The translations under genes were made by a program, and so were the position numbers. From NCBI GenBank assembly GCA_964597495.1, contig CAZQYC010000039.1, forward strand, positions 1-34,861: a stretch of DNA of 34,861 nt. The letters are read 5' to 3'. Origin of the DNA: an uncultured Steroidobacteraceae bacterium (GTDB lineage Bacteria; Pseudomonadota; Gammaproteobacteria; Steroidobacterales; Steroidobacteraceae). The notes below the pieces were generated by a model that saw only the letters and a program-made list of their open reading frames with translations, had not been told where the DNA came from and made no database searches. Positions 18,587-34,861 of this stretch are shown piece by piece. Each line of letters opens with the position of its first letter. Position 1 is the stretch's first letter.

Positions 18587-18885
18587 CGCTTTGCGCTCGG
18601 ATCGCCGATGCGACCGAGCGCGCCTGATAAAAAATCAATCTCCAATGCCTGCTGGCCGATCTTCGCATGAAGTTCTTTGATGTCCGGCTGTAAGGCTTTC
18701 GCACCTTCACCGCCAAACGCTTCCGCTGCTCCTTCCAGCAGTTGCGTCTTCCACTGCGTCACTTGCGTTGGATGGACATCAAAGCGTTCGGCAATCTCAA
18801 TCACTGTCTGTTGCCCTTTGATCGCTTCCAGGGCCACTTTGGCTTTGAACGTCGCTGAATGGTTACGTCTCGATCTCTTACTCAT
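18583..18885 (-). CDS. IS3-family transposase OrfA (HTH)
   Basis: MSKRSRRNHSATFKAKVALEAIKGQQTVIEIAERFDVHPTQVTQWK is typical of IS3 OrfA. Confidence 0.8.
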   Translation of the reverse strand: MSKRSRRNHSATFKAKVALEAIKGQQTVIEIAERFDVHPTQVTQWKTQLLEGAAEAFGGEGAKALQPDIKELHAKIGQQALEIDFLSGALGRIGDPSAKR

Positions 18886-20563: not shown

Positions 20564-22114
20564 ATGGATCACACAAGAATCCAACCCAACGTCGTTGACT
20601 CTGCGGATTTGCTCCGCCATATCACGGCAGACAAAGCGCCGCTCTACCGTAGCATCATGGATGTATTCGCGGCGGCTAAGCGGCAATACCGGCTGCAACT
20701 TCGGCCCGATGAAGTGGCTAGCGAAGCCACCTGGCCAGGGGACACACCCCGCATTGAAGAGATCAATGCCATGCTCACGCAGCTGTCGCAATGGGGCAAC
20801 CTGGAGTCACAGCCAGACACAACACGTGTTTCGACACTCAGCGATTTCTATCGAGCGAGATATCTGTATCGGTTGTCCCATGGCGGTGAAGCGGTCGAAG
20901 CCGGCCTCGCCGTGCTATTGCAGACGTTGCGTCGTCGCGCCGAACTGCAGACCGTTGCGCTCGAGGACATCGCTGGCCGCTTGCTTGCGCTCAAGCAACT
21001 CATCGAAGCCGATACCGATGGCAAGGGGCCCGATGTAGCAAAGTCGCACGAAACTCTGCGCGACCTCGTACGCGTATTTGAGGACCTCGCCGAAAACGCG
21101 CAATCCTTCATGGCCAGTGTTGCTCGCAGCCTGGAACTCCAGCAAGCGGACGCGAACACAATCGTCAACTACAAGCGCCGCCTGATCGACTATCTGGAGC
21201 GATTCATCGGCGACCTGGTCCGCCGATCCGACAGCATCGCTCGATTGATCCAGTATCTGACGAGCTATGTCGATGGAATTTTTTTGCAGATCGCGGAGCG
21301 CGAAGCCAGGGATGCTGCGCCCGGCGATGCGAGCGATCAGCAGGATCAGAAGATCGAACGATGGAGTGTTTGGACAGAACGTTGGAAAGGGCTGCGCGGG
21401 TGGTTTCTTTCCACTGGTGCAGAGCCGCCTCAAGCGGAGCTGCTGAGAGCGCGGGCCCGAGCAGCAATTCCGCTGCTGCTTGGCGCGATAGCGACGTTGA
21501 ACGAGCGTCGCAGCGGTCGCAGCGATCGCTCGGCGGATTTCCGCGTTCTGGCGCAGTGGTTCGCCGCCTGTGGCACCGATGGAGAGGCGCATCGTATGGC
21601 GCGTGCTGCGTTCGCACTCCAACCAGCTCGGCATTTCTCGCTCAATCCGCATGCAGATGGCGATCTTCCCGCCAGCACACCGTGGGCTGAAGCACCGCCG
21701 CTGCAAATAAATCCTCGACTACGCGAGTATGGTGAGGCAGCACCTCGTGGTCCGTTACCACGCGTCAGGGATAGGAGCGCGGAACGTGAATTGATGGCGC
21801 AGCAATTAGCTGAAGAGTCTCGGCAAGTGCAAGCCGCGCGGCAGCGCCTTGCAACGGGGCGTCCAGCTCGTTTGTCAGAAATCGGCGAACTCGACAAGCA
21901 TGCATTTCAACTCTTTCTGGGCTTGTTAGGCGAAGCGCTTTCGGACCAGCTCAATCCCGATCAGCCGGTGGAGCTGCAAACGGGTGACGGACTCCTTCGA
22001 GTACGTCTGGAACCCTTGCCCGCTGAGAGCCGAGCCACCATTGAAACGCCCGCCGGCACGTTCTCGGGAAGAGATCACCTGCTGACCATCACCGAGATCC
22101 ACGCAACCGAATGA
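20564..22114 (+). CDS. jetA: Wadjet JetA (MksF/kleisin-like, DUF3375-type)
   Basis: First gene of a four-gene operon with the size pattern 516/411/1387/421 aa and ATGA-overlapped junctions. Identified mainly by operon context with JetC and JetD. Confidence 0.55.
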   Translation: MDHTRIQPNVVDSADLLRHITADKAPLYRSIMDVFAAAKRQYRLQLRPDEVASEATWPGDTPRIEEINAMLTQLSQWGNLESQPDTTRVSTLSDFYRARYLYRLSHGGEAVEAGLAVLLQTLRRRAELQTVALEDIAGRLLALKQLIEADTDGKGPDVAKSHETLRDLVRVFEDLAENAQSFMASVARSLELQQADANTIVNYKRRLIDYLERFIGDLVRRSDSIARLIQYLTSYVDGIFLQIAEREARDAAPGDASDQQDQKIERWSVWTERWKGLRGWFLSTGAEPPQAELLRARARAAIPLLLGAIATLNERRSGRSDRSADFRVLAQWFAACGTDGEAHRMARAAFALQPARHFSLNPHADGDLPASTPWAEAPPLQINPRLREYGEAAPRGPLPRVRDRSAERELMAQQLAEESRQVQAARQRLATGRPARLSEIGELDKHAFQLFLGLLGEALSDQLNPDQPVELQTGDGLLRVRLEPLPAESRATIETPAGTFSGRDHLLTITEIHATE

Positions 22115-23346
22115 GCACCCGGCGATCACTGCAGGACAGCCGACGGATCGGCGATCTCCAAAAGTCCATGCAACAGGATGAATTCCGTAAGGCGTTGCGC
22201 GCATTGCTGATGACGCCGCTGATGTCACCCGAGCATGAAGATTTTGCAGCAGTGCGCCGGCAGGCCGAGCGGGTGCGCGATTGGTTCGCACGCGAGACCG
22301 GCTGGCCCTTATACATCGATCGTGAAGGTGCGCGCTTGTTCAAGCGACCCGCCGACTTGACGGACGATACCCGCGGCCTGCCTGAATACAATCGCTATCG
22401 CTATGTGCTGCTTTGCCTGTGCTGCGCCGTGCTTGAACGCGCCGATCCTCAGATCACGTTGAGGGTGCTCGGTGAACGTGTGATGCAGCTGGCGGCTGAT
22501 CCTACGCTCGCCGCATACGGATACGAATTTACTTTCGGGACGGCTGTCGAACGGCGTGCTCTCGTAGCTGTGTGCAAGACGCTGCTGGAACAAGGAGTGT
22601 TGCAGCGAGTGGCGGGTGACGAGGAAAATTTCGTGCACGAGAGCGGGTGGACGCAGTCGGACGCGCTCTACGATGTGCAACGGCGATTATTGGCTGGCAT
22701 GCTCGCCGCCATTCGCGGACCCTCGACTTGGCGCGCTGAAGAAGCACCGGCAGATTTCGAATCTCGCTTGCGATCTCTGATTGCCGAACATATCACAGAC
22801 AGCGATCAGGGTCGTCGCGACGCCCTGCGCCACTATCTTGCGCGCCGCCTATTGGACGATCCCGTACTTTATACCTCTTCACTGAGCGAGGAAGCTCAAG
22901 CGTACTTCATCAATCAGCGCGGTCCGATGGCAAGCCGGCTCAGCGATGCGCTAGGACTCATCGCCGAGCAGCGCGCCGAGGGTTTGGCGCTCACCGACGA
23001 AGCGGGGCAACTCACTGATGTGACTATGCCGGCCGAAGGGACGGAGGCGCACGCCACATTGCTCGTCGCGGAATTTCTCGCGCAACGTTTGCGCTCGAGT
23101 TCATTGCCTACGGTAACGACAATGGACGCGATTGCGGGTCACTTGCGTAACGCAAGCGCGCAGTACGGCAAATACTGGCGCAAATCCGCACGCGCACCCG
23201 GTGCGGAGAAAGAGCTTGCCGGTATCGCCGTCGACAGGCTTCGCAAGTTGCGACTGGTTGCGCTCGAACAGAATCGCATCACACCGTTGCCCGCCATTGC
23301 GCGCTTCGCGGTGGGACAAACCGATATCCGTGCCACAGATTCATGA
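22111..23346 (+). CDS. jetB: Wadjet JetB (MksE-like, DUF4194-type)
   Basis: Start ATG overlaps the jetA stop (ATGA at 22111-22114). Position and size fit JetB. Confidence 0.55.
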   Translation: MSTRRSLQDSRRIGDLQKSMQQDEFRKALRALLMTPLMSPEHEDFAAVRRQAERVRDWFARETGWPLYIDREGARLFKRPADLTDDTRGLPEYNRYRYVLLCLCCAVLERADPQITLRVLGERVMQLAADPTLAAYGYEFTFGTAVERRALVAVCKTLLEQGVLQRVAGDEENFVHESGWTQSDALYDVQRRLLAGMLAAIRGPSTWRAEEAPADFESRLRSLIAEHITDSDQGRRDALRHYLARRLLDDPVLYTSSLSEEAQAYFINQRGPMASRLSDALGLIAEQRAEGLALTDEAGQLTDVTMPAEGTEAHATLLVAEFLAQRLRSSSLPTVTTMDAIAGHLRNASAQYGKYWRKSARAPGAEKELAGIAVDRLRKLRLVALEQNRITPLPAIARFAVGQTDIRATDS

Positions 23347-26300
23347 GCGACACTCCGCCAACTCCACCACCTGCGTTGCCCCGACCGACCCGAGAACGGT
23401 GGCAGCCATTGCGGCTAGGCGTGGTCGAAGTCTTCCACTACGACAGCGAGGAGTTTTGGTTTCACGATGGTCATTTGCTGTTACGCGGCAACAACGGCAC
23501 TGGCAAGTCCAAGGTGCTTTCGCTAACGCTGCCATTTTTGTTCGACGCGCAGTTGCGTCCTTCGCGCATCGAGCCCGACGGCGATGCCAGCAAGCGAATG
23601 TCGTGGAACCTGCTGATGAACAGTTATCCGCGCCGCATGGGCTACACCTGGATTGAATTCGGTCGGCGTCTCAGCGACGGCTCGGTGCGTTATTTGACGC
23701 TGGGTGCTGGTCTTTTGGCGGTGGATGGCAAGCCGCAAGTCGATAGCTGGTACTTCATTCTTGACGGAGGCGACCACCAGACCGGTGTGCGCATCGGCCA
23801 GGATTTATGGCTCACCGGTACGCAGCGCGTCGTGCTCACACGCGACCGCCTGCGGGAACGCATCGAAGATCCGGGCTGGGGCCAGGTATTCGAGTTCAGC
23901 GGCCAGTACCGTCGGGCCGTCGATGAGCGGCTGTTCCATTTGGGCAGCAAACGTTACGACGCGCTTATGGATACGCTGATCCAGTTGCGACAACCGCAGC
24001 TATCGAAAAAGCCGGACGAGGCCGGTTTGTCTCAGGCTCTGAGCGACGCACTGCCGCCCATTCCATCCGAGCTACTGACGGATGTGGCCCAAGCGCTCAA
24101 CCAACTGGAGGAGGATCGCAATCGCTTAGAAGAGCTGCGGCAGCTGGAGCGCGCTATCCGGCAGTTCGAGAGCCGCTATCGAGTGTACGCTGGCATGTTG
24201 ACCCGCCGACAAGCTCGCGAGCTGCGTCAAGCGCAGACGGGTTTCGACAACGCCAGCGAGGAGCGCAACAAGGCGCAGACCGAACTCGAGAGAACGCAGC
24301 AAGCCGAACAGGCCGGCATCGCCGCTCACGAGCAGGCTCGGCAAACGCTGGCCGCTGCGCGTGAGCATCTGGAGACTCTGCAGAGCGATCCCGCCAATCA
24401 AGACGCAAATCGCCTGAATCAGGCGGAACGAGACGCGTTGGAGGCAAACATCGCCGTCGCGTCCGTGGCCAAGCAGTGCGAAGAAGCGCGCCAGAAACTC
24501 ACAAGAGAAGAAGAACGCAGCCGGAAAGCGGCCGAGCGTGCCGACAACGCACAAGCGGAACTTCTATCCGTTCGGAAGCAATGCTGGAATGAAGCAGAAG
24601 CGGCGAGGGCGCTTGGCTCCTTCGAGTCCAATCGGCTCGCTGCGGCGACACCGGATGAGCTCGCGACGCTAGCGCGATCGGAGCTTGCAGCGGCGGCGGA
24701 AGAACTGCGTCTGGCTGGCGCGAAACGGCGCCAGGACATCAGGCACTTGGAACAGCGCCATGCCGCGGCGGACAAGAAATTGTCGGCGCTTGAATCGCTG
24801 CAAGTGACGCAGCGCGAGCGCCAGGCAGAGCTGGAGGACGCGCTGAGAAAGCGCACTGCCGCGGATGGCAATGCAGAGCTGGCCGCGAGTAGCCTTATCG
24901 AGGCATGGGTCGCACACATCGGTGCGCTGGGCCAGCTGCGCCTGGATGAGGTAGCGGTAATGCCGCAGCTCACAGCGTGGACCGCTCGCCCTGAGGGATT
25001 GAATCCGGCCAATTCGGCCCTTGGCGAAGCCTATCGGCAGGTCTCGCTTGATCATGCACGACGCGAGTCGTTGCTCAACGCAGAACAAACAGCGCAGGAG
25101 CATCGCCGCGCCGAGTTAATCGCCGAACGCGATCGGCTCGTTGCTGGTCATGATGCATTTCCACCGGCGAGGCCGACACGCTTGCCTGGTATTCGCGAGA
25201 AACGAGACGGCGCCCCATTCTGGCAACTGGTGGATTTCCAATCTCATCTCGAGCCAGCCGAACGCGCTGGCATTGAGGCTGCGCTAGAGGCGTGTGGCTT
25301 GCTGGACGCATGGCTCGCTCCGCATGGCACGTTGATCGCTCCCGACGGCACCGCATTACTGGATAGTCACTGGATTCGGCGTCCCGTCACGGCTACGACG
25401 AACCTGGCGAGCGCGTTGTGCCCAGCCGTGCCGGACGGCATCAGCATCGACGTTGCATTGATCACTGCACTACTGAGCAGCGTCGCGTATGGAGACGATG
25501 ACATGATGTCGGCCGAATCTTGGATCTCGAGAGACGGACGTTATCGACTTGGAGCCCTAGCCGGCGCGTGGCAAAAGAGCGAAGCGGTCTATGTCGGCCA
25601 CTCGGCTCGCGAGAAGGCGCGTAAGCGCCGCCTTGATGAGATTTCTCTACTAATCGAGGAGCTGAACGTCGCTGCCGCTGATATCGAGCGGCGCTTTGCC
25701 GAGCTGCACGCGGACCGCGAGCGCAGCAAGCAGGAGCTTGACGCTGCACCGTCTGATGTAACGCTTCGCGAAACAGTTCTCACAGCCGCAAGCGCCGGAC
25801 AGGAAGTCGCGAGGGCCTACCAGCGCTTCGAGCAAATCGAGACTCAATGCCGCGTTGCCGAGGATGAGCTGCAGGCGGCACGGGAAACAGTGCAGAAGGA
25901 TGCTGCAGATTTGCAACTCCCAAGCGAACCGTCGGCGCTGATATCGGTCAGCGATGCGGTCGATCGATTCAATGCCAGTTACCAGCATTTGCTATCAGCC
26001 GCACGTGAATGGCGCACCGCTCACCCCGAATATGTGGCGCAGCACGAGCGCGAAATCGAAGCTCGCCATGGGCTCTCGCAATTCGAGAGCACTAGAGCTG
26101 AGACAGTTGAGCGCGCGGAAAGAGCCCGCGTGCGCTTCGAAACGTTGCGCAACGCCGTCGGTCAGCAAGTGGAGCTGCTTCGGCAACAGCTGACAATTGC
26201 GCGGACGAAAGTGGATACAGCCGAGGATCACCTCGACAAGCAACAACTGTCCTTGAATGAGGCCCGCGAGCAACGTGTCATTGCTCATGCTCGGGCCGAA

Positions 26301-27506
26301 ACAGCCGAAGCAGCACTGACCGAGCGTGTCGAGGTTCGTGGCAGGGCGGTCGATAAATTGCAGCGCTTCACCGCCAGTGGCCTGCTTTCAGCCGCATTGC
26401 CTCAAATGGAGTTGCCGGATTTGGCAACGACCTGGACCATCGATCCAGCACTGACGCTGGCCCGCCGTACCGAGCAGGCGCTTACGCACATCAACGACGA
26501 CGAGGCTCATTGGAATCGCGTGCAACATCAGATCGGCGAAGATCTGACTGAGCTGCTTCGTTCGCTGAGCGCTCTGGGACATCACGCCAGCTCCGAGCCC
26601 AACGATTGGGGCTTTACTGTTCATATCCAGTATCAAAACCGCTCAGAACGTCCAGACACGTTAGCCAACGCTCTGGCGTACGATATCGCACAGCGGAGCG
26701 AGCTTCTTTCTGCCAAGGAGCGAGAGGTATTGGAGAACCACCTGCAGGCCGAGATAGCGGCTGAGATTCAGCGCTTGATGCGAGCTGCCGATCAGCAGGT
26801 CGGCACGATCAACGAGGAACTACATAAGCGCCCGACGACTACAGGTGTGCGCTATCGGTTGCTATGGCAGCCGCTATCTGCAGAGGACGGTGCTCCGGCG
26901 GGATTGGAGATCGCACGGGAGCGGTTGCTTCACACCAGCTCCGATCTGTGGTCGACAGAAGACCGCAGAGTGGTCGGTACGATGTTGCAACAACAGATCG
27001 TAGCGGAGCGTGCCCGAGCCGATGCGGAAACCAGTGGCACCGGCGGTAGTCTGCTCGATCAACTAGCCCGTGCTTTGGACTATCGTCGCTGGCACCGCTT
27101 TCGCGTGCAGCGACATCAGGATGGTCAATGGCGCAAACTGTCGGGACCAGCTTCCAGCGGTGAACGCGCGCTGGGCCTGACCGTGCCATTGTTCGCCGCC
27201 ATCGCGAGTTTCTACGGCCGAGGCGGCAGCCCACTCGCGCCAAGACTAATGCTGCTCGATGAAGCCTTCGCAGGCATCGACGATAAGGCCCGCGCCCACT
27301 GCATGGGGTTGATTCGTGAATTCGACCTTGACTTCGTGATCACGAGCGAACGCGAGTGGGCCTGCTATGCCGAGCTGCCTGGTGTATCAATCTGCCAATT
27401 GCAGCGCCGCGAGGGTGTGGACGCGGTGTTCGTTTCCCGCTGGACATGGGACGGGCGCGCCAAGCGACCAGAGCGAGATCCCGATCGAAGATTTCCGCCC
27501 ACATGA
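23343..27506 (+). CDS. jetC: Wadjet JetC (SMC-like ABC ATPase, MksB homologue)
   Basis: N-terminal LLLRGNNGTGKSKVLSLTLPFLFDAQLRP is Walker A with the conserved JetC N-terminus. It has very long Ala/Glu/Arg-rich coiled-coil arms, a C-terminal signature-like SGPASSGERALGLTV, and Walker B LMLLDEAF. Confidence 0.75.
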   Translation: MSDTPPTPPPALPRPTRERWQPLRLGVVEVFHYDSEEFWFHDGHLLLRGNNGTGKSKVLSLTLPFLFDAQLRPSRIEPDGDASKRMSWNLLMNSYPRRMGYTWIEFGRRLSDGSVRYLTLGAGLLAVDGKPQVDSWYFILDGGDHQTGVRIGQDLWLTGTQRVVLTRDRLRERIEDPGWGQVFEFSGQYRRAVDERLFHLGSKRYDALMDTLIQLRQPQLSKKPDEAGLSQALSDALPPIPSELLTDVAQALNQLEEDRNRLEELRQLERAIRQFESRYRVYAGMLTRRQARELRQAQTGFDNASEERNKAQTELERTQQAEQAGIAAHEQARQTLAAAREHLETLQSDPANQDANRLNQAERDALEANIAVASVAKQCEEARQKLTREEERSRKAAERADNAQAELLSVRKQCWNEAEAARALGSFESNRLAAATPDELATLARSELAAAAEELRLAGAKRRQDIRHLEQRHAAADKKLSALESLQVTQRERQAELEDALRKRTAADGNAELAASSLIEAWVAHIGALGQLRLDEVAVMPQLTAWTARPEGLNPANSALGEAYRQVSLDHARRESLLNAEQTAQEHRRAELIAERDRLVAGHDAFPPARPTRLPGIREKRDGAPFWQLVDFQSHLEPAERAGIEAALEACGLLDAWLAPHGTLIAPDGTALLDSHWIRRPVTATTNLASALCPAVPDGISIDVALITALLSSVAYGDDDMMSAESWISRDGRYRLGALAGAWQKSEAVYVGHSAREKARKRRLDEISLLIEELNVAAADIERRFAELHADRERSKQELDAAPSDVTLRETVLTAASAGQEVARAYQRFEQIETQCRVAEDELQAARETVQKDAADLQLPSEPSALISVSDAVDRFNASYQHLLSAAREWRTAHPEYVAQHEREIEARHGLSQFESTRAETVERAERARVRFETLRNAVGQQVELLRQQLTIARTKVDTAEDHLDKQQLSLNEAREQRVIAHARAETAEAALTERVEVRGRAVDKLQRFTASGLLSAALPQMELPDLATTWTIDPALTLARRTEQALTHINDDEAHWNRVQHQIGEDLTELLRSLSALGHHASSEPNDWGFTVHIQYQNRSERPDTLANALAYDIAQRSELLSAKEREVLENHLQAEIAAEIQRLMRAADQQVGTINEELHKRPTTTGVRYRLLWQPLSAEDGAPAGLEIARERLLHTSSDLWSTEDRRVVGTMLQQQIVAERARADAETSGTGGSLLDQLARALDYRRWHRFRVQRHQDGQWRKLSGPASSGERALGLTVPLFAAIASFYGRGGSPLAPRLMLLDEAFAGIDDKARAHCMGLIREFDLDFVITSEREWACYAELPGVSICQLQRREGVDAVFVSRWTWDGRAKRPERDPDRRFPPT

Positions 27507-28768
27507 CACGGGATTTACAGCAACCTGATGTTCGACTGGTGCGCCTCTTCGGCGGTAGTGATCTTGTACGGCTACGACGGCGACTAAGACGTCACTTCGA
27601 GCGACACGGCGGAGGCCTGAGCGGGTCGCTGCAGCTAAGTAATCTGATACCAATTGAGCAAGAAGTACTTGCTCAGTTGATGGGGCGCCCACCCCGTTCC
27701 GCGCGATCTATTCGTATACACCTTGATCAGCTGGACGCTTCACTGCGAGGTGCCGGAATCGCGGACTCGCTGCGCGCGGCATTGGAGATGTTGGATGGTC
27801 CTATCGAGGACCGTGCAGCTCTTCGGCAAGCTCGCCTGCTGCGATGGACGCAGGTGATCGATGCCGAGCGCTGGCATCCCATACTCCGTCTGTGGCTGCA
27901 AACGCCAACAACGGTCACGTCGCTCAAGCGCCTTGCTCGCGGTGACCCCTCCGCTGCTGAGCAATTACTTGAGCAAGCGAGTCGAGTGATGCGGCGACTT
28001 CCATCGGCGGGTATCACCAGAGCGCAGCTGGCTGCAGAAACGCTCGGCAATGCACATTCACTCGACAATGGATATCCGACATCAACGATTGTTCTCTCTG
28101 CACTGAGGCAGGAAAGCAGTCCAGACGATGCGCCTGCGACTGATGGACGGAACAGCGAGAGCGCGAAGGCTTCCGAGCGTGCTAGGGAAACCTGGGCCCG
28201 CGTAGGCGTACTTGTAAACGAGCTGGCGCGGCCCGCGCTGTGCTTGAATTTGCCAATGCCATTTCCAACGTTGATCGGTGGCTCATCGGGGGAACCACAA
28301 TATTTCTCACTGCGCTTTCTACTCCGCAAGAAACCTGTGTGGCAGTTTGATGGCATGCCGATTTACGTCTGCGAGAACCCCAACGTAATCGCGATTGCAG
28401 CGGATCAACTGGGCTCTCGCTGTGCGCCTCTGATCTGCACCGAAGGCATGCCTGCAGCCGCCCAGCGGGCATTGCTGACACAGTTGACTCGCGCCGGAGC
28501 CCGATTGCTCTACCACGGCGACTTTGACTGGCCAGGCGTACGCATAGCCAACTTTGTCATGCGCATTTGGCCCGCATTGCCTTGGCGCTTCACCACTGCT
28601 GATTACGAGGCGGCTGTTTCGCGCACAACACACAGCGTGCACGATTTGAGCGATATTCCTGTTAGCGCATCCTGGGATGATTCCTTGACGGAAGCGATGA
28701 AAATCCGTGGCTGCGCTATCGCTGAAGAAGCCGTTGTCTCTGAGTTGCTAAAAGACTTGGCACTCTAG
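27503..28768 (+). CDS. jetD: Wadjet JetD (MksG-like, Toprim/DUF2220-type nuclease subunit)
   Basis: Start ATG overlaps the jetC stop (ATGA at 27503-27506). The C-terminal Toprim-like acidic motifs are LICTEGMP and LLYHGDFDWPG. Confidence 0.65.
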   Translation: MTRDLQQPDVRLVRLFGGSDLVRLRRRLRRHFERHGGGLSGSLQLSNLIPIEQEVLAQLMGRPPRSARSIRIHLDQLDASLRGAGIADSLRAALEMLDGPIEDRAALRQARLLRWTQVIDAERWHPILRLWLQTPTTVTSLKRLARGDPSAAEQLLEQASRVMRRLPSAGITRAQLAAETLGNAHSLDNGYPTSTIVLSALRQESSPDDAPATDGRNSESAKASERARETWARVGVLVNELARPALCLNLPMPFPTLIGGSSGEPQYFSLRFLLRKKPVWQFDGMPIYVCENPNVIAIAADQLGSRCAPLICTEGMPAAAQRALLTQLTRAGARLLYHGDFDWPGVRIANFVMRIWPALPWRFTTADYEAAVSRTTHSVHDLSDIPVSASWDDSLTEAMKIRGCAIAEEAVVSELLKDLAL

Positions 28769-29237: not shown

Positions 29238-30380
29238 TTAGGCTGGGACCTGAATTCGCACGACGTCCTTTAGCACGCCATCGAGGCCGCCGAAGACGGT
29301 TAATTTGTCGACCTTCTCCGTGACCTTTTCGAGCGTTTCGAGCTCCTTCAAACGAAGCAGCGTCGGGTTCTCGTCCATGAGTCGGGCCGTGTTGAGGAGC
29401 GAACGCGTTGCTGCGGTCTCTTCACGACGCTTGATTAGGTTTGCTTGCGCGACCTTTTCAGCTTCAACCACACGATTGAGAATTTCCTTCATCTCACCCG
29501 GTAGGATCACGTCCTTGATGCCCACGCTCGCCAACGCGATGCCGTGTTGCTCGATCTTGCCGCGCGCAGTCGTCTCAATCTCTCGATCGAGTGCGCCTTT
29601 CGCGCCGAGCATTTCATCGAGCGTGCGAGTACCGACCGCTTCGCGCAGCGCAAACTGCAGTTCCTTGTAGACGAACTCTACGAAGTTCTGTAGCTCTCCG
29701 CGCGCTTTGACTGCATCGACCACCCGCCAGAGAGCAGTGAGATTGACGCGCAGGCTAACCTTATCCTTGGTCAAGATGTCTTGGCCGGAGACCTCCATGG
29801 TTTGTACACGACGATCGACCAGCTCGGTCTTGAGCGTGCGCTGGAACCTCCAGAATGCATGCAGGCCCGGCTCGAGAATCTTCGTGAATTGACCGTCCAC
29901 GATCAGCATTGCCGCCGAGGTATCCGGCACCTCCACGGTAACGACGGCCTCGGCGATCTGCGATGCGAGTGGCGGTTTCGCCCGTGCAATTACACGCGCA
30001 ACTTCTGCCGGTACCTCAAGCTCCTTGGCAGTGTCGATCTTAACGACGCGCAGATCGATCGGTCCCTTCCAGTAGAGCTGACGCTTACCGGGCGCAAGCA
30101 CACCCGCAAGCTTGTCATTCTTGTAGACGAGGCCGACCTCGCGATCCGTGAGTTCGACGATGTCGAAATACTTCTCCATCGTGGCACGTGCCTCCTTCAC
30201 GAGAAAGTCGACGCGCGCATGCTCGAACTCGGGCGCAGTAAGGTCGTAAACTTGCAGTTCTACGCGGACGAATGGCGCGACGATCCAGCGCGTGCCCGGC
30301 TCGAGCACTCCGGTGAACTGCTTATTCCTCCAGACGAGCGCACGCTCGTGCTGGGCGATCGTCACTCGCTTAATGGTCAT
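29238..30380 (-). CDS. SPFH/band-7 (stomatin/prohibitin/HflK-like) domain protein
   Basis: ILTKDKVSLRVNLTALWRVVD and the following Ala/Glu-rich coiled-coil are typical of the band-7 family. The N-terminus carries three repeats of a xGxLxPGxxxxxPF-like strand motif. Confidence 0.65.
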   Translation of the reverse strand: MTIKRVTIAQHERALVWRNKQFTGVLEPGTRWIVAPFVRVELQVYDLTAPEFEHARVDFLVKEARATMEKYFDIVELTDREVGLVYKNDKLAGVLAPGKRQLYWKGPIDLRVVKIDTAKELEVPAEVARVIARAKPPLASQIAEAVVTVEVPDTSAAMLIVDGQFTKILEPGLHAFWRFQRTLKTELVDRRVQTMEVSGQDILTKDKVSLRVNLTALWRVVDAVKARGELQNFVEFVYKELQFALREAVGTRTLDEMLGAKGALDREIETTARGKIEQHGIALASVGIKDVILPGEMKEILNRVVEAEKVAQANLIKRREETAATRSLLNTARLMDENPTLLRLKELETLEKVTEKVDKLTVFGGLDGVLKDVVRIQVPA

Positions 30381-30728
30381 GATGACGTTCTCCTTATGTG
30401 GGTCGGGAGTGATTGAAAATTTGCATCACGCGCTCCCATCCCGTATTCGCGCGATACATTCAAGAAAAAAGTCCGAAGCACCCCGCGAATGTCGGGCGGG
30501 CATCGCGGTCGGCGCGGCAGGCGCGTAGAGCAAGTGACACTGGTGTCGTGTGCGATCATCCTTAATGCACGTCCTTTCCCAGTCTCGTTGCAGAACGGCT
30601 ATGCGCGCGTCGAGCATCGATGCACAGAGCGCGATACTCGCTGCTGTTTGCGCGAGCACTTGCATGCAAGCGAAGAACAGCTGGAGCGCTTCGGATGCGG
30701 AACTTGCGTTCCGCGGTGGAGATGCCGC

Positions 30729-30775
30729 TGGCATCGACAGGGGGAGTCGAACCCCGAGCTTTTTAGGCTCTACCC
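30729..30775 (-). pseudogene. Orphan tRNA 3' fragment (T-arm GGGGTTCGACTCCCC plus acceptor 3' strand plus CCA) with a D-arm remnant and no anticodon arm
   Basis: The reverse complement reads ...GGGTAGAGCCTAAAAAGCTCGGGGTTCGACTCCCCCTGTCGATGCCA. No complementary 5' acceptor strand was found. Confidence 0.35.
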
Positions 30776-30852
30776 TGGTCGCATTGGAGGGAATCGAACC
30801 CTCGACCTAGCAGTTGTTGGCTGCCTGCTCTATCCCACTGAGCTACATTGCG
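30776..30852 (-). tRNA. tRNA-like gene with the non-canonical anticodon loop CCAACAA (apparent anticodon AAC, C33), 77 nt including CCA
   Basis: Good cloverleaf: D-arm GCTCAGTGGGATAGAGC, T-arm GAGGGTTCGATTCCCTC, and an acceptor with 6 of 7 pairs. A34 and C33 are unusual, so it may be a pseudo-tRNA or an unusual tRNA. Confidence 0.4.
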
Positions 30853-31054
30853 TGGTGATTGAGGCACGACTCGCGCGGTACGCACAGCGACAGAGTCGCA
30901 GCGCGCCAGCGTGGCTTTGGAACCACGGCCGCTGACACGAAATCGCAAACCTCGATCTCGGTACCGATCGGCGCTCGTGCAATATGGACGAGCGCCGATC
31001 AGAATTCATAATCAAATTTGTACGCGGTGGGCGGAGCCTCTTCTCCGCCCACGT

Positions 31055-31627
31055 TCATCCATTTGCATGCAATCGCGAAGTCTTCGGCACGCCGAGAAGC
31101 AAGAACTCCATTTGATCGGCGAGAATTTTTCGATTCGCAAGAATGAAGACTTCATATCGATTCGGCACATACGGCACGTAGTGCAGCTTCATGCCGGCGG
31201 CTTCCGGCGTGCGGTCTGCCTTACCGTTATTGCATGCCTTGCAAGCCGCGACGAGATTCATCCACGAATCCGCGCCGCCCTTCGAGCGCGGTATCACATG
31301 TTCCATATCGAGTTCCTCGAATCGAAATCGCTGCGCGCAGTACGCGCAAATATATCGATCTCGAGCAAGCAGAATTTCCTTGGTGAGCGTCGGCACGTGA
31401 TCGAAGTGCCGGACGATGAAGTCCTTGCCCTTGATCGCGATGATCGAGCTTGCGCGGATGCACGACTGCAGGCCCGACGAACGCTGCGTGCCGCCGCGAA
31501 GCGTGAACTCGTGCGTACCCGCGGCCCACGCGATCATGTCGGTCGCGTAGTAGTGCGCAGCAGTGCGAACGTTAATCCACCGGTGCGGAGCGCCGGCGAC
31601 GTCGAGCGCGAGAATAGGCGGACTCAT
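31055..31627 (-). CDS. HNH endonuclease (His-Me finger), embedded in the tRNA array
   Basis: CAYCAQRF...EHVIPRSKGG...NLVAACKACNNGK is an HNH motif with a CxxC...CxxC zinc site. RBS GGAGAAG. Located 45 nt downstream of tRNA-Met on the same strand. Followed by a 10-bp-stem hairpin (31027-31052) plus a U-rich tract, and a 13-bp-stem hairpin (30966-31000). Confidence 0.8.
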   Translation of the reverse strand: MSPPILALDVAGAPHRWINVRTAAHYYATDMIAWAAGTHEFTLRGGTQRSSGLQSCIRASSIIAIKGKDFIVRHFDHVPTLTKEILLARDRYICAYCAQRFRFEELDMEHVIPRSKGGADSWMNLVAACKACNNGKADRTPEAAGMKLHYVPYVPNRYEVFILANRKILADQMEFLLLGVPKTSRLHANG

Positions 31628-31671
31628 CGAACTTCTCCTCTAGGTTGATCAACAGCGCTTGCTGCTGGTGG

Positions 31672-31748
31672 GTGGTCGTGCAGGATGGATTTGAACCATC
31701 GATAACCGGCTTATGAGGCCGGCGCGTTAGGCCGCTTCGCCACTGCAC
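31672..31748 (-). tRNA. tRNA-Met/CAT (elongator or Ile-lysidine type)
   Basis: Anticodon arm CCGGC-CTCATAA-GCCGG, T-arm GATGGTTCAAATCCATC, acceptor CGTGCAG/CTGCACG, discriminator A and CCA encoded. The 1-72 pair is formed, so it is not initiator-like. Confidence 0.8.
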
Positions 31749-31878
31749 GCATTCAAAGCGGAGGATCGGACTCCATGTCACGACCACCGCGTGCCGAACG
31801 AAAAGCGCGGTTTTCATTCGGCACCGACCACGATGCGAAGACGCATCGTGGCGAGCGTACATCCATGTACGCGGATTT

Positions 31879-31955
31879 TTGGTGGCCGCTGCTGGACTTG
31901 AACCAGCAGCCTCTCGATTATCGGTCGAGCGCTCTTGCCAAGTGAGCTAAGCGGC
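31879..31955 (-). tRNA. tRNA-Ile(GAT)
   Basis: Perfect acceptor GGCCGCT/AGCGGCC. Anticodon arm CTCGA-CCGATAA-TCGAG. T-arm GCTGGTTCAAGTCCAGC. CCA encoded. Confidence 0.85.
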
Positions 31956-32044
31956 CAAACGGTTAGTTGCGTGCAAGAACGTACACACGCCACGATGCGT
32001 CATCGCATCGTGGGCGGTGTCAAAAAAACACGCTTCTTGTTTGA

Positions 32045-32081
32045 CAAGCGGTCGTCGTGACACGGAGTCCGATCGACCGCT
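32045..32081 (-). other. Conserved-loop stem-loop motif, copy 1: 9-bp perfect stem AAGCGGTCG/CGACCGCTT around the loop TCGTGACACGGAGTCCGAT. It sits just 3' of the tRNA-Glu-like gene.
   Basis: Copy 2 at 32862-32894 has the same 19-nt loop with 1 substitution but a different, still complementary stem (compensatory changes). Confidence 0.55.
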
Positions 32082-32086
32082 TGAAT

Positions 32087-32162
32087 GTGGCGTTCCTGAG
32101 GGGATTCGAACTCCGGTTATCTCCGTGAGAAGAAGACGTCCTTTCCAACTAGACGATGAGAG
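32087..32162 (-). pseudogene. tRNA-Glu(CTC)-like pseudogene (acceptor stem does not pair)
   Basis: Glu-like D-arm TCGTCTAGTTGGAAAGGAC, anticodon arm TCTTC-TTCTCAC-GGAGA, and a T-arm with one mismatch. The 5' strand GCTCTCA cannot pair with the 3' strand CAGGAAC. Confidence 0.45.
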
Positions 32163-32172
32163 CAAGAAGCGA

Positions 32173-32259
32173 GTGGTGGAGGGTGCAGGATTCGAACCTG
32201 CGGAGATCGAGTCTCTCCCGGATTTAAGTCGAGTGCGTCAGATCACTCGTCCAACCCTC
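32173..32259 (-). tRNA. Class II tRNA-Leu(TAA)-like, 87 nt, with a weak D-arm and an A31-C39 mismatch. Possibly degenerate.
   Basis: Perfect acceptor GGAGGGT/ACCCTCC, T-arm GCAGGTTCGAATCCTGC, anticodon loop CTTAAAT, variable-arm hairpin GGAGA-GACTCGA-TCTCC. Confidence 0.5.
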
Positions 32260-32505
32260 CAGTAATCTAGATCTTTATGGCGGCGGGTGAAGGATGGCAC
32301 TTTATATGACAGTGCCGATGACACGTCCTTGTTACCGCGCCCGGCCAGCACATCCGTGTGCTGGCGTTCGCGCGGTTCAAATGCACGTTAAGTGCATTTG
32401 AAAATGCATCCGCGCTCACCCATCTGTTTTCGAAACAGCGCCACTTGGCCTCGATGGGAACCGACCATGGAAAGAAATTTGATCGCGCGGTGCGATCAAA
32501 CTGAA

Positions 32506-32582
32506 TTGGTGCGGCGTGCAGGATTTGAACCCGCGACCTCTCGGTTCGAAGCCGAGAACTCTGATCCACTGAGCTAATGCCG
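32506..32582 (-). tRNA. tRNA-Arg(TCG)
   Basis: Anticodon arm CTCGG-CTTCGAA-CCGAG, T-arm GCGGGTTCAAATCCTGC, acceptor with one mismatch. CCA encoded. Confidence 0.7.
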
Positions 32583-32604
32583 CGTGTTGTGCTCAAGCGA
32601 TGAA

Positions 32605-32682
32605 GTGGCGCGATGTGAAGGAGTTGAACCTTCGACCTCCGGCTTCGTAAACCGGCGCTCTAATCCAGCTGAGCTAACATCG
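32605..32682 (-). tRNA. tRNA-Arg(ACG)
   Basis: Perfect cloverleaf. Anticodon arm CCGGT-TTACGAA-GCCGG, T-arm GAAGGTTCAACTCCTTC. CCA encoded. Confidence 0.85.
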
Positions 32683-32687
32683 CATGA

Positions 32688-32762
32688 CTGGTGCACGCAG
32701 GAGGGCTCGAACCTCCGCCCCTTGCTTTGTAAGAGCGACGCTCGGCCGCTGAGCTATACGTG
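32688..32762 (-). tRNA. tRNA-Val(TAC)
   Basis: Anticodon loop CTTACAA, with one C-A mismatch in the anticodon stem. T-arm GGAGGTTCGAGCCCTCC. The acceptor has a G-U pair. It lies 5 nt from tRNA-Arg(ACG). Confidence 0.75.
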
Positions 32763-32861
32763 CATTGTGGATCACATCTGAACAAGACCCATGGATGGGT
32801 CTCGCCTGCGCTGTCTTCCGTGCAGGCGGCGATGAGCGAAAGTCACGTCTTTTGATCATCG

Positions 32862-32894
32862 CGCGGTTGTCGTGACAGGGAGTCCGATCAACTG
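32862..32894 (-). other. Conserved-loop stem-loop motif, copy 2: stem GCGGTTG/CAACTGC around the loop TCGTGACAGGGAGTCCGAT. It sits just 3' of tRNA-Asp.
   Basis: See copy 1. In both copies the motif ends ~6-8 nt before the encoded CCA (plus strand) of the upstream tRNA. Confidence 0.55.
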
Positions 32895-32901
32895 CATCAA
32901 T

Positions 32902-32977
32902 ATGGCGCCACGGATGGGGTTCGAACCCACGACGTCTCGCTAGACAGGCGAGCACTCTGGCCTCTGAGTTACCGCGG
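32902..32977 (-). tRNA. tRNA-Asp(GTC)
   Basis: Anticodon arm CTCGC-CTGTCTA-GCGAG, T-arm GTGGGTTCGAACCCCAT, discriminator G and CCA encoded. Confidence 0.85.
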
Positions 32978-33140
32978 CAAAATTCTTGTTGGATCACGCG
33001 TCAGGATCGCGCCTTGTCGTCCATGACCGGCGCGCAGTTGCGCCAGCTTTCGCTGTCCAAAATCGTTCCTACGATTTTGTCGAACCTAAATTCTTGCAGT
33101 CAAAGTGCGATGTCCTGCCAGTTAGACGGCGCGTGAACGA

Positions 33141-33215
33141 ATGGTGGGCGCGGAGGGGATCGAACCCTCGCCGTCCGATTAAAAGCCGGATGCTCTAACC
33201 CTTGAGCTACACGCC
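33141..33215 (-). tRNA. tRNA-Lys(TTT)
   Basis: Anticodon arm TCCGG-CTTTTAA-TCGGA, T-arm GAGGGTTCGATCCCCTC, acceptor GGGCGTG/CGCGCCC. CCA encoded. Confidence 0.85.
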
Positions 33216-33231
33216 CTCAACGAATGAAGAA

Positions 33232-33316
33232 TTGGTGCGCCTCGTCGGATTCGAACCGACATGTCGAAAGACACTGCGTCTTGAGCGCAGCGCGGCTGCC
33301 AATTTCGCCAGAGGCG
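33232..33316 (-). tRNA. tRNA-Leu(CAA), class II, 85 nt
   Basis: Anticodon arm CTGCG-CTCAAGA-CGCAG, long variable-arm hairpin TGTC-TTTCG-GACA, T-arm GTCGGTTCGAATCCGAC, perfect acceptor GCGCCTC/GAGGCGC. Confidence 0.85.
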
Positions 33317-33340
33317 CACAGTAGTAACGAAATGGTTCTT

Positions 33341-33549
33341 GGTGCGGGCGGCAGGAGTCGAACCTGCAATGGACGGAACTCCGATCATTACTCGGAGACA
33401 GCTTCGGCTTGGAAACGCGCTTCCCTAGCGACCCACTGAAGTAGCCGTTCGGTGCATCCGCAACCGTGGGCCTTGGCTGATTGCCCGTTTAGCCTTTCGG
33501 CTTCCCAGTTTCATCGTTTTTGGGCGCGGTTACCGTTTCGCCACACCCG
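33341..33549 (-). ncRNA. Unclassified ~209-nt element with tRNA-like termini: 5' acceptor plus D-arm (GCGGGTG-TG-GCG...CGC) and 3' T-arm plus acceptor plus CCA (GCAGGTTCGACTCCTGC-CGCCCGC-A-CCA), separated by ~135 nt
   Basis: The 3' module is a clean T-arm/acceptor. The only complementary 5' strand (GCGGGTG) lies ~200 nt upstream. The element is too long for a tRNA, and no tmRNA-like tag ORF was found. Confidence 0.3.
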
Positions 33550-33643
33550 CACAGTTCAAGAAATGACGTTGACACTACAGTTGGCTGCTTCGCATCATGT
33601 TTAATCTCGTTTGTTGGATTTCAAATAAATCCAACAAACGAGA

Positions 33644-33730
33644 TTGGTCCGTTCCCCCGGATTTGAACCGGGATGACATTGAAGTCACTGCGGTCTGAGC
33701 GCAGCGCGTCTGCCAATTCCGCCAGGAACG
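33644..33730 (-). tRNA. tRNA-Leu(CAG), class II, 87 nt, C1-G72
   Basis: Anticodon arm CTGCG-CTCAGAC-CGCAG, variable hairpin TGAC-TTCAA-GTCA, T-arm CCCGGTTCAAATCCGGG, perfect acceptor CCGTTCC/GGAACGG. Its 3' end abuts a 19-bp perfect hairpin (33602-33643). Confidence 0.8.
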
Positions 33731-33744
33731 GATCAAGAAAAAAA

Positions 33745-33821
33745 ATGGCACACCGGGAGGGACTCGAACCCCCAACTTGCCGTTTTGGAGACAGCTACTC
33801 TGGCCAATTGAGTTACCGGTG
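33745..33821 (-). tRNA. tRNA-Trp(CCA)
   Basis: Anticodon arm GCTGT-CTCCAAA-ACGGC, T-arm GGGGGTTCGAGTCCCTC, G1-U72 wobble. CCA encoded. Confidence 0.8.
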
Positions 33822-34029
33822 CAGATTGAGAGTCGGGCGCTTCCACGCGCCGTTAAAAAAATTGGTACCGACGGGTGAGTTCGGATGACTCTTCGAAGAC
33901 ACTTAACGTGTTTTCGAACCGAGCGAACGCAAATACATGGACATATTGGCCGGGCGCGATAACAGGGATGTGGATGTTGCGACAGCCTTGGCTGGCGTGT
34001 CTGCCTGTTTCACCACGTCGGCATTTCGA

Positions 34030-34103
34030 TTGGGGCCCTCAGTCGGAATTGAACCGACAACCTGCTGCTTACAAGGCAAGCTCTGCCAGTTGAGCTACAA
34101 GGG
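34030..34103 (-). tRNA. tRNA-Thr(TGT)-like, 74 nt, with a 4-bp anticodon stem and no nt 26
   Basis: Perfect T-arm GTCGGTTCAATTCCGAC, D-arm GCTCAACTGGCAGAGC, best anticodon loop CTTGTAA. The anticodon-arm geometry is unusual. Confidence 0.5.
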
Positions 34104-34115
34104 CATGGAAAAATG

Positions 34116-34204
34116 TTGGTGGGTAACCAGGGAGTCGAACCCCGTGTGTCCATTTAGGACGCCTGATTTACAGTCAAGTGCAGTCGCCAGTGCTGCTCGT
34201 TACC
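34116..34204 (-). tRNA. tRNA-Tyr(GTA), class II, 89 nt
   Basis: Acceptor GGGTAAC/GTTACCC, D-arm GCAG-CACTGGCGA-CTGC, anticodon arm CTTGA-CTGTAAA-TCAGG, variable hairpin GTCC-TAAAT-GGAC, T-arm CGGGGTTCGACTCCCTG. Confidence 0.85.
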
Positions 34205-34213
34205 CGAAGTAAA

Positions 34214-34313
34214 GTGGCGCGGACGAAGGGGTTCGAACCCTTGGCCTCGACGTTGGCAACGTCGCGTTCCGACCGAAGGAAGTGGCGCGTCCATACCATC
34301 TGGAATACATCCG
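34214..34313 (-). tRNA. Aberrant 100-nt tRNA-Gly(GCC)-like gene, with a canonical 3' two-thirds and a ~24-nt insertion/degeneration in the D-arm region. Possible pseudogene.
   Basis: Anticodon arm CGACG-TTGCCAA-CGTCG, T-arm AAGGGTTCGAACCCCTT, 3' acceptor CGTCCGC-G-CCA. The only pairing 5' strand (GCGGATG, G-U at position 6) lies 100 nt upstream. It is followed by a degenerate D-arm and an extra TTCC-TTCGGTC-GGAA hairpin. Confidence 0.5.
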
Positions 34314-34376
34314 CAATTAAGCAAGGTGCCTGTCTGTTCGACGTTCTTGCGAGTCGCGCGAAACATGCATCGGAAT

Positions 34377-34452
34377 ATGGAGCGGAGGACGGGGCTCGAA
34401 CCCGTGACATCGAGTTTGGAAGACTCGCGCTCTACCCACTGAGCTACATCCG
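34377..34452 (-). tRNA. tRNA-Gly(TCC), first gene of the array
   Basis: Anticodon arm CGAGT-CTTCCAA-ACTCG, D-arm GCTCAGTGGGTAGAGC, T-arm ACGGGTTCGAGCCCCGT, acceptor with one mismatch. CCA encoded. Confidence 0.8.
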
Positions 34453-34459
34453 CAAAATT

Positions 34460-34500
34460 TTGAGTGAATAAAACCCTCACGCTTTCACGTGCTTCAAAAA
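34460..34500 (-). promoter_or_regulatory. Candidate sigma-70-type promoter for the tRNA array: -35 TTGAAG and an AT-rich -10 (TTTTAT/TATTCA) 18-21 nt downstream
   Basis: Read on the minus strand, immediately upstream of the tRNA-Gly(TCC) 5' end. Sequence inspection only. Confidence 0.25.
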
Positions 34501-34861
34501 ATTCTTACTAGCTCGGGACTCTCACCCTCAACATCGCCTACGACACACATCGCGTGTTGTTCTGAACACGGAAGTGCGAATGCGGCGGAGCGCATGGACG
34601 CGCAGAAGCCGCAAGCGAAGACGGCAGTTAAGTGACGTCGGCGCGTGTGTGCGACACAAGGGTGAGAGCCCTTGATCTATTTCAAGTTGTTAAACAGCGT
34701 CCTGTCCGAACGTGCGGAGCAGGGGACCGTGCGCGCGAACGCACGAATCCGTTCGAGGGCTTAACCTCGCGGACTGGACACTTTGGGGTGGTTTTTGCCG
34801 ACTCTGAGTTGATTCTCAGGTGGCTGGCTCCCTTTAGGTGCCCCGTCCGGCTTATGCCTTC

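Follow-up and report, generated by a model that had tools for sequence, protein, structure and literature searches.

Long transfer RNA (tRNA) arrays, or L-arrays, are poorly understood, and to our knowledge experiments have been carried out only in Anabaena and Acidithiobacillus. They have been described as long, non-periodic, horizontally transferred and supernumerary, with a conserved adjacent HNH endonuclease gene and with rtcB nearby (Santamaria-Gomez et al. 2021, PMC8421152). The trn array of Anabaena sp. PCC 7120 is silent until translational stress, and three of its 26 genes are pseudogenes (PMC8421152); in mycobacterial arrays, HNH genes are the most widespread coding sequence (Morgado & Vicente 2018, PMC5966550). 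Here, a tRNA array with an HNH gene is described from contig CAZQYC010000039.1 of an uncultured Steroidobacteraceae bacterium; the whole 34.9-kb stretch that was analysed is referred to as the window. The region is read, with a probability of about 80 %, as an accessory L-array on a Steroidobacteraceae chromosome and as one eroding copy of a module conserved in the family. The locus probably belongs to the known L-array class, and the structured RNAs attached to it are the part most likely to be new; literature searches turned up no published account of these RNAs or of an array in Steroidobacteraceae.

Sixteen tRNA genes were located by using ARAGORN on the whole window, all on the minus strand (30776-34453); the remaining 31 kb contain none. 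Upstream of the first gene, the window extends for another 408 nt. Fourteen of the 16 reached the gathering score of Rfam family RF00005 (29 bits) with default filters and all 16 with permissive filters. A Glu-like gene, matched by RF00005 at 32091-32163 with 24.5 bits and hence under the threshold, is the 17th member. The original prediction, made from the sequence letters, of about 17 tRNA genes on one strand within 3.7 kb was thus borne out, and its list of anticodons is the one obtained here. CCA is encoded at the 3′ end of 17/17 members, and the spacers range from 5 nt (32684-32688, between Val(TAC) and Arg(ACG)) to 246 nt, the longer ones containing fragments or repeats, with no periodicity; on the short spacers and the CCA of every complete member, sequence and cloverleaves agree with what had been predicted. 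The HNH gene (31055..31627, minus strand, 190 aa; PF14279, PF01844 and PF13395) is co-oriented with the tRNA genes and starts 45 nt after tRNA-Met, again as predicted.

Related loci, labelled with L-numbers (L003, L008, L104, etc.), were compared with the window. In most of them, 13-26 co-oriented tRNA genes are followed by the HNH gene, one tRNA-like gene and an SPFH/Band_7 gene, an arrangement found in most metagenome-assembled genomes (MAGs) and in Povalibacter uvarum. Colinearity of the window with the L003, L004 and L005 arrays extends from leader to SPFH gene. The conserved order of the module is leader, Gly/Gly/Tyr/Thr/Leu, RtcB, Trp, Leu(CAG), a 211-nt RNA (Element 1), about 15-20 tRNAs, Met, HNH, a ∼330-nt RNA (Element 2) and SPFH; in 12 distinct related loci, rtcB is embedded in the array behind the first few tRNAs. 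The SPFH/Band_7 protein (380 aa; 29238..30380, minus strand; PF01145) has syntenic counterparts of ∼80 % identity in nearly all Steroidobacteraceae loci and gave no match in PADLOC. Several features by which L-arrays are recognised are found at this locus: 16-17 co-oriented, non-periodic genes, an HNH gene adjoining the array, and a number of tRNAs that ranges from 0 to 26 beside orthologous HNH genes. In one MAG (MFD04850.bin.2.287), two copies of the module were present, L011 and L012 with 13 and 22 tRNAs, respectively, which reflects either several arrays per genome or a mixed bin; the RtcB gene of L012 appears frameshifted.

The HNH gene occurs without an array in the cultured species Steroidobacter flavus, Peristeroidobacter soli, P. 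agariperforans and S. agaridevorans, and the array is therefore accessory. The original prediction had held that this is not the housekeeping tRNA set, and the comparison agrees with it: homologous arrays vary in content and are missing beside the same HNH gene in several cultured species. A housekeeping tRNA operon at a core location would account for genes that are co-oriented, tightly spaced and all equipped with CCA, as well as for HNH-SPFH surroundings that are conserved across the family. Such an operon would, however, not be expected to vary in size from none to 26 genes among relatives, between flanks that differ by locus, to have about one-third of its members damaged, and to lack usable genes for Ala, Asn, Cys, Gln, Glu, His, Phe, Pro and Ser; this explanation is regarded as very improbable.

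Read as an accessory L-array, the locus resembles the Anabaena array in its long co-oriented series of genes, many isoacceptors, short spacers, patchy distribution, pseudogenes and the presence of HNH and rtcB nearby. It differs from the Anabaena and Nostoc arrays in that HNH is upstream there and downstream in the window, where the array is chromosomal and beside a Wadjet system. Compared with Anabaena, rtcB is placed inside the array in the relatives of the window, and the module adds three structured non-coding regions and the SPFH gene. Searching with the window HNH protein (tblastn) identified relatives on plasmids of three phyla, beside arrays of 23 tRNAs in Nostoc (pNPM8), 29 in Mycolicibacterium (pCBMA213_1) and 27 in Methylibium petroleiphilum PM1 (RPME01). 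The Nostoc HNH is 47 % identical to that of the window over the HNH core, and CCA is encoded in only 5/23 of the Nostoc tRNAs, whereas it is encoded in all of those in the window. In the Methylibium array, 27/27 co-oriented tRNAs encode CCA, and the last of them is followed after 70 nt by an HNH gene of the same orientation, the product of which shares 48 % identity with the window HNH across the full length. This array differs in being on a plasmid and in its isoacceptor order, and RtcB, Band_7 and Element 1 were not detected there. Mycobacterial array units are found on plasmids, phages and chromosomes with translation and ribosome-rescue genes nearby, and their HNH core is 40 % identical to that of the window; the Mycolicibacterium array differs in belonging to another phylum, in having HNH in the middle of the array and CCA in 9/29 genes, and in having no homolog of Element 1.

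The window HNH has 814 homologs in the protein collection, the best 120 of the 814 being 76-89 % identical. In a genome scan, HNH proteins 82-88 % identical were found in Steroidobacteraceae MAGs and in the isolates S. flavus, S. agaridevorans, S. gossypii, P. soli, P. agariperforans and P. uvarum. The ratio of nonsynonymous to synonymous substitution rates (dN/dS) is 0.08-0.24 at dS 0.4-0.9; such strong purifying selection points to an enzyme that is of use, not to a selfish gene in decay. Assignment of HNH as a known defence effector was rejected: searches of PADLOC and NCBIfam returned only domain-level matches to PtuB, Cas9 and IscB, far under the cut-offs.

HNH proteins of this family are also found in viruses, and the array had originally been proposed to be horizontally acquired or phage-derived. 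In IMG/VR, tRNA arrays adjoin the HNH gene in 19 of the 26 contigs that have a 42-55 % identical full-length HNH; these arrays are always co-oriented, contain up to 31 tRNAs and lie mostly upstream of HNH. Full-length homologs are encoded by the jumbo phages RsoM2USA and SCTP-2, and one viral contig has an RtcB with 50 % identity. These data, together with anticodon loops that resemble proposed nuclease-escape loops (see below), would be expected if the array were part of a prophage or phage-derived island whose tRNAs serve phage translation or resist host anticodon nucleases. Other observations speak against this. Phage structural, replication or integration genes were not found in the 30 kb on the downstream side of the array, which instead contain a Wadjet system, an IS3 transposase, a HipA-like gene and metabolic genes. 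Megablast of the array revealed no near-identical DNA in phage or plasmid collections, the HNH-RNA-SPFH core is present on array-free chromosomes of cultured Steroidobacteraceae, and Element 1 is absent from viral contigs. We therefore consider a prophage origin improbable. What stands of the earlier claim is horizontal spread, which is seen in the varying content of the arrays among relatives and in HNH-linked arrays on plasmids and viral contigs; a location within a prophage finds no support in the 30 kb on the downstream side, where no phage structural genes were detected. The tRNA cluster of phage T4 is comparable in having a homing endonuclease gene (segB) among the tRNAs, deviant anticodon loops and an RNA ligase in its context (T4 Rnl, with RtcB as its counterpart in the relatives of the window); T4-type clusters differ in that no phage genes were found in the window. 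SegB is a GIY-YIG enzyme and not an HNH enzyme.

In the tRNAs of the array family (L003-L027), C33 replaces the near-universal U33 in 43/369 genes, mostly before G34, and does so systematically in Ile(GAT) (11/11), Gly(GCC) (6/7), Leu(GAG) (4/4) and Val(GAC) (2/3). Examples in the window are tRNA-Ile(GAT) (31880..31956), the loop of which reads CCGATAA (31917-31923), and tRNA-Asp(GTC) (32903..32978), which has U37 in the loop CTGTCTA (32939-32945); U37 is present in 12/14 Asp genes of the window and its relatives. C33 was also found in 4/29 genes of the Mycolicibacterium array and 2/27 of the Methylibium array, and in 0/23 of the Nostoc array. Changes in the anticodon loops of phage tRNAs have been proposed to provide escape from anticodon nucleases (van den Berg et al. 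2023, PMC10264068), and by analogy the combination of RtcB with C33 and U37 loops would fit accessory tRNAs shaped to escape such enzymes; C33 in Ile, Gly(GCC), Leu(GAG) and Val(GAC) and U37 in Asp are the loops that a phage origin could equally invoke.

The copy of the module in the window is eroding. Twelve of its members have close orthologs with similar Rfam scores and were all called by ARAGORN on the minus strand: Gly(TCC) (34378..34453; 67.1 bits; ortholog in L003/L008), class-II Tyr(GTA) (34117..34205; 37.7 bits; 77/88 identical to Tyr of L011), Trp(CCA) (33746..33822; 58.1 bits; 71/76 identical to L016), Leu(CAG) (33645..33731; 48.6 bits; 75/85 identical to L003), Leu(CAA) (33233..33317; 50.7 bits), Lys(TTT) (33142..33216; 69.3 bits; 74/75 identical to L008), Asp(GTC) (56.7 bits), Val(TAC) (32689..32763; 56.3 bits compared with 61.9-64.8 for its orthologs), Arg(ACG) (32606..32683; 64.7 bits; 75/78 identical to L026), Arg(TCG) (32507..32583; 63.0 bits), Ile(GAT) (66.6 bits) and, last before HNH, Met(CAT) (31673..31749; 65.5 bits; 75/77 identical to L003). 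Three of these 12 near-intact tRNAs have a stem mismatch: U6.C67 in Gly(TCC), C.A in the anticodon stem of Val(TAC) and A.C in the acceptor stem of Arg(TCG).

Five members, all singled out in the original prediction, deviate from the canonical elongator tRNA of RF00005, in which the acceptor stem has 7 bp, the D stem 3-4 bp and the anticodon stem 5 bp, the 7-nt loop has U33, and the score exceeds gathering. One of them, the gene after HNH with the anticodon loop CCAACAA (C33 and A34), is treated below as part of Element 2. The other four are full-length, damaged genes on the minus strand, and each of their defects is private to the window. The 100-nt Gly(GCC) gene (34215..34314) carries a D-arm insertion or duplication of ∼24 nt, and its 3′ two-thirds match orthologs of 75-77 nt; it scores 42.8 bits compared with 64.8-66.3 in the orthologs. 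In Thr(TGT) (34031..34104), nt 26-27 are deleted relative to L026 and L010, which leaves a 4-bp anticodon stem, no nt 26 and an 8-nt loop that ARAGORN reads as 'gtaa' (48.9 bits compared with 62.5-70.2). The 3′ acceptor strand of Glu(CTC) (32088..32163) is mutated so that the acceptor stem is unpaired, and the gene scores 24.5 bits, compared with 51.4 for the L003 ortholog with its paired acceptor. The nominal Leu(TAA) (32174..32260) is a degenerate class-II tRNA with a poor D arm and a mismatched anticodon stem (35.1 bits). It has no ortholog and is a chimera with a Ser-like acceptor and an Arg-like 3′ part: the best alignments, of low score, are to Ser genes, and the 3′ end aligns to that of Arg(GCG) of L003.

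An insertion of ∼24 nt after GGTA was observed at the same position of the D loop in Gly(GCC) of the window and in a Lys-like gene of L015 (194-292); the two insertions are partly similar (TGGnC...TTCC...GGTC) and could represent a recurrent event or a small insertion element.

Three further tRNAs are left as fragments, all on the minus strand. The 5′ fragment of Leu(GAG) (33991..34022), at the upstream edge of the RtcB deletion, is identical over 32/32 nt to the 5′ end of Leu(GAG) of L104 and colinear with L003 2577-2610. The truncated pseudogene of Gln(TTG) (33080..33136) comprises the 5′ 57 nt and is 93 % identical to positions 1-57 of the L104 gene. In Ser(CGA) (32278..32466), an insertion separates the 5′ part (32462-32420) from the 3′ end (32295-32278), which were aligned by blastn to positions 5-47 and 72-89 of Ser(CGA) of L014. 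These three are true fragments. Two orphan 3′ halves of the original prediction were explained differently: the one ending at 33339 is the end of Element 1, and that at 30729-30776 consists of hairpins, in which the 'CCA' is coincidental because GATGC-CAGCG-GCATC makes a stem-loop.

No RtcB was detected in the window by tblastn. The 208-nt gap at the expected position of rtcB retains only the segment that follows its stop codon (33867..33972, minus strand), which is 79-83 % identical to segments of L009 (3580-3679) and L011 (8879-8961) that start at the RtcB stop. An inverted copy of this segment (32322-32427) interrupts Ser(CGA), overlapping its 5′ part by 8 nt; the two copies form an inverted repeat (I1) of 106 nt with 76 % complementarity. 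A perfect 19-bp hairpin (inverted repeat I6; 33603..33645, minus strand) lies in the spacer after Leu(CAG). In relatives this spacer is shorter by ∼80 nt: Leu(CAG) and Element 1 are 93 nt apart in the window and 16 nt apart in L003. A spacer repeat of ∼60-99 nt (repeat families D2, D6 and I2-I4; blastn) occurs in three array spacers, at 32013-32111 and 32828-32926 and inverted at 31750-31826, with paired hairpins CCACGATGCG..CGCATCGTGG among the repeats at 31828-31851 and 31990-32013. It was not found in the related loci and may be a miniature mobile element specific to the source genome.

It had also been suggested that some members are regulatory or decoy RNAs. That the 100-nt Gly gene and the Thr-, Leu(TAA)- and Glu-like genes are functional RNAs of this kind and not pseudogenes might be argued from the T arm and encoded CCA that all of them keep, from the Rfam tRNA threshold that 4/5 of the aberrant members pass, from the similar D-loop insertion in a different tRNA of L015, and from the conserved non-decoding tRNA derivatives, Elements 1 and 2, that the family does contain. 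For these four genes we nevertheless consider the idea unlikely: they look like pseudogenes because their defects are found in the window only, while the orthologs are canonical with much higher scores, and the same array also carries truncations, the rtcB deletion, an inverted duplication and spacer repeats. In spirit, the suggestion does apply to the CCAACAA gene and to the orphan half that belongs to Element 1, both of which are parts of conserved, covarying RNAs. Truncations, loss of rtcB, inverted duplication and spacer repeats together are the signature of relaxed selection. Interrupted genes also occur singly in related arrays (Lys in L003, the Lys-like gene in L015 and Phe in L026); erosion of members is therefore typical of the array family, and the window copy is further along. 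Within this eroding array, Element 1, HNH, the structured RNA downstream of HNH and the SPFH gene are still intact.

Element 1 (33339..33549, minus strand) is a conserved 211-nt RNA between Leu(CAG) and Leu(CAA); its copy in L003 is at 4158-4371. It is 83-89 % identical in eight genome loci, and a covariance model matched it in 25 metagenome loci, which came from a single pattern scan. The window copy matches the model end to end with 236.9 bits. The 5′ part comprises a 7-bp acceptor strand and a class-II-type D arm, and the 3′ part a T arm, the acceptor 3′ strand, A73 and CCA. The insert of ∼130 nt between them comprises a hairpin whose loop measures 11-16 nt, a second, small hairpin and a ∼115-nt domain; the 5-bp helix that closes this domain is separated from the T arm by exactly 5 nt. 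Compensatory changes were found in 10/60 pairs, a number reached by 0/500 shuffles and compared with 0-3 in slid controls; the core helices are invariant, and covariation therefore cannot test them. After Element 1 itself, the model scores best on tRNA-Leu genes, and the 5′ hairpin is similar to the anticodon arm of Leu(UAA). From these features we read Element 1 as a putative tRNA-Leu derivative without a decoding role.

Element 1 is directly downstream of rtcB in arrays reduced to 1-2 tRNAs (L091, L095, L101 and L107); in L097 and L112 it occurs on its own, surrounded by metabolic genes. No Rfam family matched it; it was absent from viral contigs (pattern and covariance model) and, by the covariance model, from the Nostoc, Mycolicibacterium and Methylibium arrays. 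Several known RNA classes were considered and rejected. As an intron-bearing tRNA it was called (tRNA(AAT) with a 128-nt intron) only under relaxed ARAGORN settings, amid many obvious false positives. A group I intron in a tRNA is not indicated, because the insert is ∼130 nt compared with at least ∼200 nt, starts after the D arm outside a recognisable anticodon loop, and gives no match to Rfam RF00028. Like transfer-messenger RNA (tmRNA), Element 1 has an acceptor/T/D frame of tRNA type with a large structured insert; it has G3-C70, however, and not G3.U70, and while the loop UAAUGA contains possible stop codons, the variation upstream of it is helix covariation. No tmRNA was found in the window or the related loci by ARAGORN, nor any Rfam tmRNA match at E≤1-10. 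Y RNA of the YrlA type is encoded near rtcB in Salmonella (PMC4201824), which recalls the position of Element 1 directly downstream of rtcB in the reduced arrays. The topology is opposite, in that the tRNA-like ends of Element 1 are its own 5′ and 3′ termini; Rfam Y RNA was not matched, and the Ro60 (TROVE) gene that accompanies YrlA has no family member among the called neighbours of the window and related loci.

Element 2 (30721..31050, minus strand) occupies ∼330 nt between HNH and the SPFH gene and is a conserved structured RNA that includes the cloverleaf with the CCAACAA loop (30776-30852) and the hairpins at 30729-30776. Alignments comprised up to 21 loci, and in the alignment of 20 sequences (A3) compensatory changes were found in 26/76 pairs, compared with at most 8 in slid controls and reached by 0/500 shuffles. 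In order, the element consists of a hairpin after the HNH stop, a 9-bp hairpin with a variable loop, a multi-helix domain of ∼110 nt, the cloverleaf, an optional hairpin that is missing in the window, and three hairpins, the ones that had been predicted to be an orphan 3′ half. A tmRNA-like fold with a long-range CATCG..ACC / ..GATGCCA stem was rejected, since both strands lie in local hairpins, the 5′ one backed by covariation and the 3′ one (GATGC..GCATC) pairing in 18/20 sequences. Only the cloverleaf of Element 2 was recognised by Rfam, as a tRNA.

A homolog of this cloverleaf is located ∼190-220 nt past the HNH stop in most relatives. Its acceptor, D and T arms are almost invariant, while the anticodon read by ARAGORN differs in nearly every copy (CAT, CAG, CAC, GTT, AAT, AAC, TTT, TCA, or loops of 5-6 nt), and the encoded CCA, present in every true array tRNA, is missing in most copies. 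Because the anticodon drifts and CCA is missing, the cloverleaf would be a structural or processing module. The ∼110-nt domain ends with CCNCCA, 2 nt before the cloverleaf, so that cleavage by RNase P would free the upstream domain with a CCA-like end. Neither the CCAACAA gene nor Element 1 appears to be a decoding tRNA. Between Element 2 and the SPFH start, a possible hairpin with a run of six T (CCCGC..GCGGG..TTTTTT; ∼30455-30500, minus strand) was observed; it might end the array-HNH transcript, and a terminator scan gave no call there.

The leader (34454..34861, minus strand), a conserved, structured non-coding region that measures at least 400 nt, precedes the first tRNA and runs off the window end; its counterpart in L003 is at ∼1600-2357. 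Two blocks of it are 78-87 % identical to the region before the array in about 20 related loci. The fold predicted by RNAalifold has 101 pairs, 14 of them with compensatory changes, and contains the invariant long-range helix GGGCUCUCACCC/GGGUGAGAGCCC. The homologous leader of L003 had no Rfam match at E<0.1 (best E 0.49), and promoter or terminator consensus sequences were no more frequent than in shuffled sequence. Judged from the conservation of the non-coding elements (leader and Element 1), which remain at 82-90 % identity, and from the dN/dS of HNH, the parts that the eroding array retains appear to be under selection.

Several points weigh against the assignment to an accessory L-array. 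That the array is supernumerary, i.e., that it duplicates host isoacceptors, is suggested by analogy with relatives that live without an array and not by this genome itself. Within the window, which reaches 408 nt beyond the first tRNA on its upstream side, neither an integrase nor a clear island border was seen. In 60 loci (L028-L087; Burkholderiales, Thiotrichaceae, Polaromonas and others), an HNH gene of the same length and ∼50 % identity has no adjacent array or SPFH gene; the link between HNH and arrays is therefore not obligatory, and the family has a life outside arrays. Finally, the purifying selection on HNH and its persistence without arrays are more in keeping with an enzyme useful to the host than with a homing endonuclease that is purely selfish.

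Elsewhere in the window, a complete Wadjet type II system (JetA2, JetB2, JetC2 and JetD2; 20564-28768, plus strand) is directly beside the SPFH gene, so that the array adjoins a defence system. An IS3-family transposase (17759-18885, minus strand; possible upstream orfA at 18583-18885) and a fusion of a HipA-like kinase with a helix-turn-helix domain (15653-17041, plus strand) were also observed, which suggests a variable, island-like region; the other neighbours are metabolic genes.

If the array functions as an L-array, it would be transcribed from the leader as a single precursor, which would be cut by the normal tRNA-processing enzymes into CCA-bearing tRNAs. Induced by stress, these would serve as spares whenever translation or the pool of housekeeping tRNAs has suffered damage, and in the relatives RtcB would re-ligate cleaved tRNAs. 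HNH would be an array-linked nuclease that probably promotes maintenance, reshuffling or spread of the array. The best NCBIfam models for the RtcB of L003 (2703-3920) were RtcB-family relatives, including 'release_rtcB', with scores well below the cut-offs; we take the latter to model RtcB genes coupled to release factor H. More tentatively, and at somewhat less than even odds in our estimate, the leader, Element 1 and Element 2 could be three undescribed RNA families that form a dedicated system for sensing or repairing tRNA damage with RtcB, HNH and SPFH. In this system the tRNA mimics would not decode but serve as sensors, decoys, scaffolds or processing signals, and the C33 and U37 loops would be adaptations that make the spare tRNAs resistant to anticodon nucleases.

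For the family, these results describe a large and well-conserved gammaproteobacterial lineage of L-arrays in soil Steroidobacteraceae, and cultured species with the array (P. uvarum) and without it (S. flavus and others) constitute a natural test bed. Because rtcB lies inside the arrays of relatives, the arrays are physically tied to tRNA repair, and the repeated breaks of the U33 rule in array tRNAs offer a testable handle on nuclease-resistant accessory tRNAs. The decaying copy in the window reveals the parts that are kept once selection on single tRNAs relaxes, namely HNH, two structured RNAs and the SPFH gene, and the conserved structured RNAs derived from tRNA may represent new RNA families.

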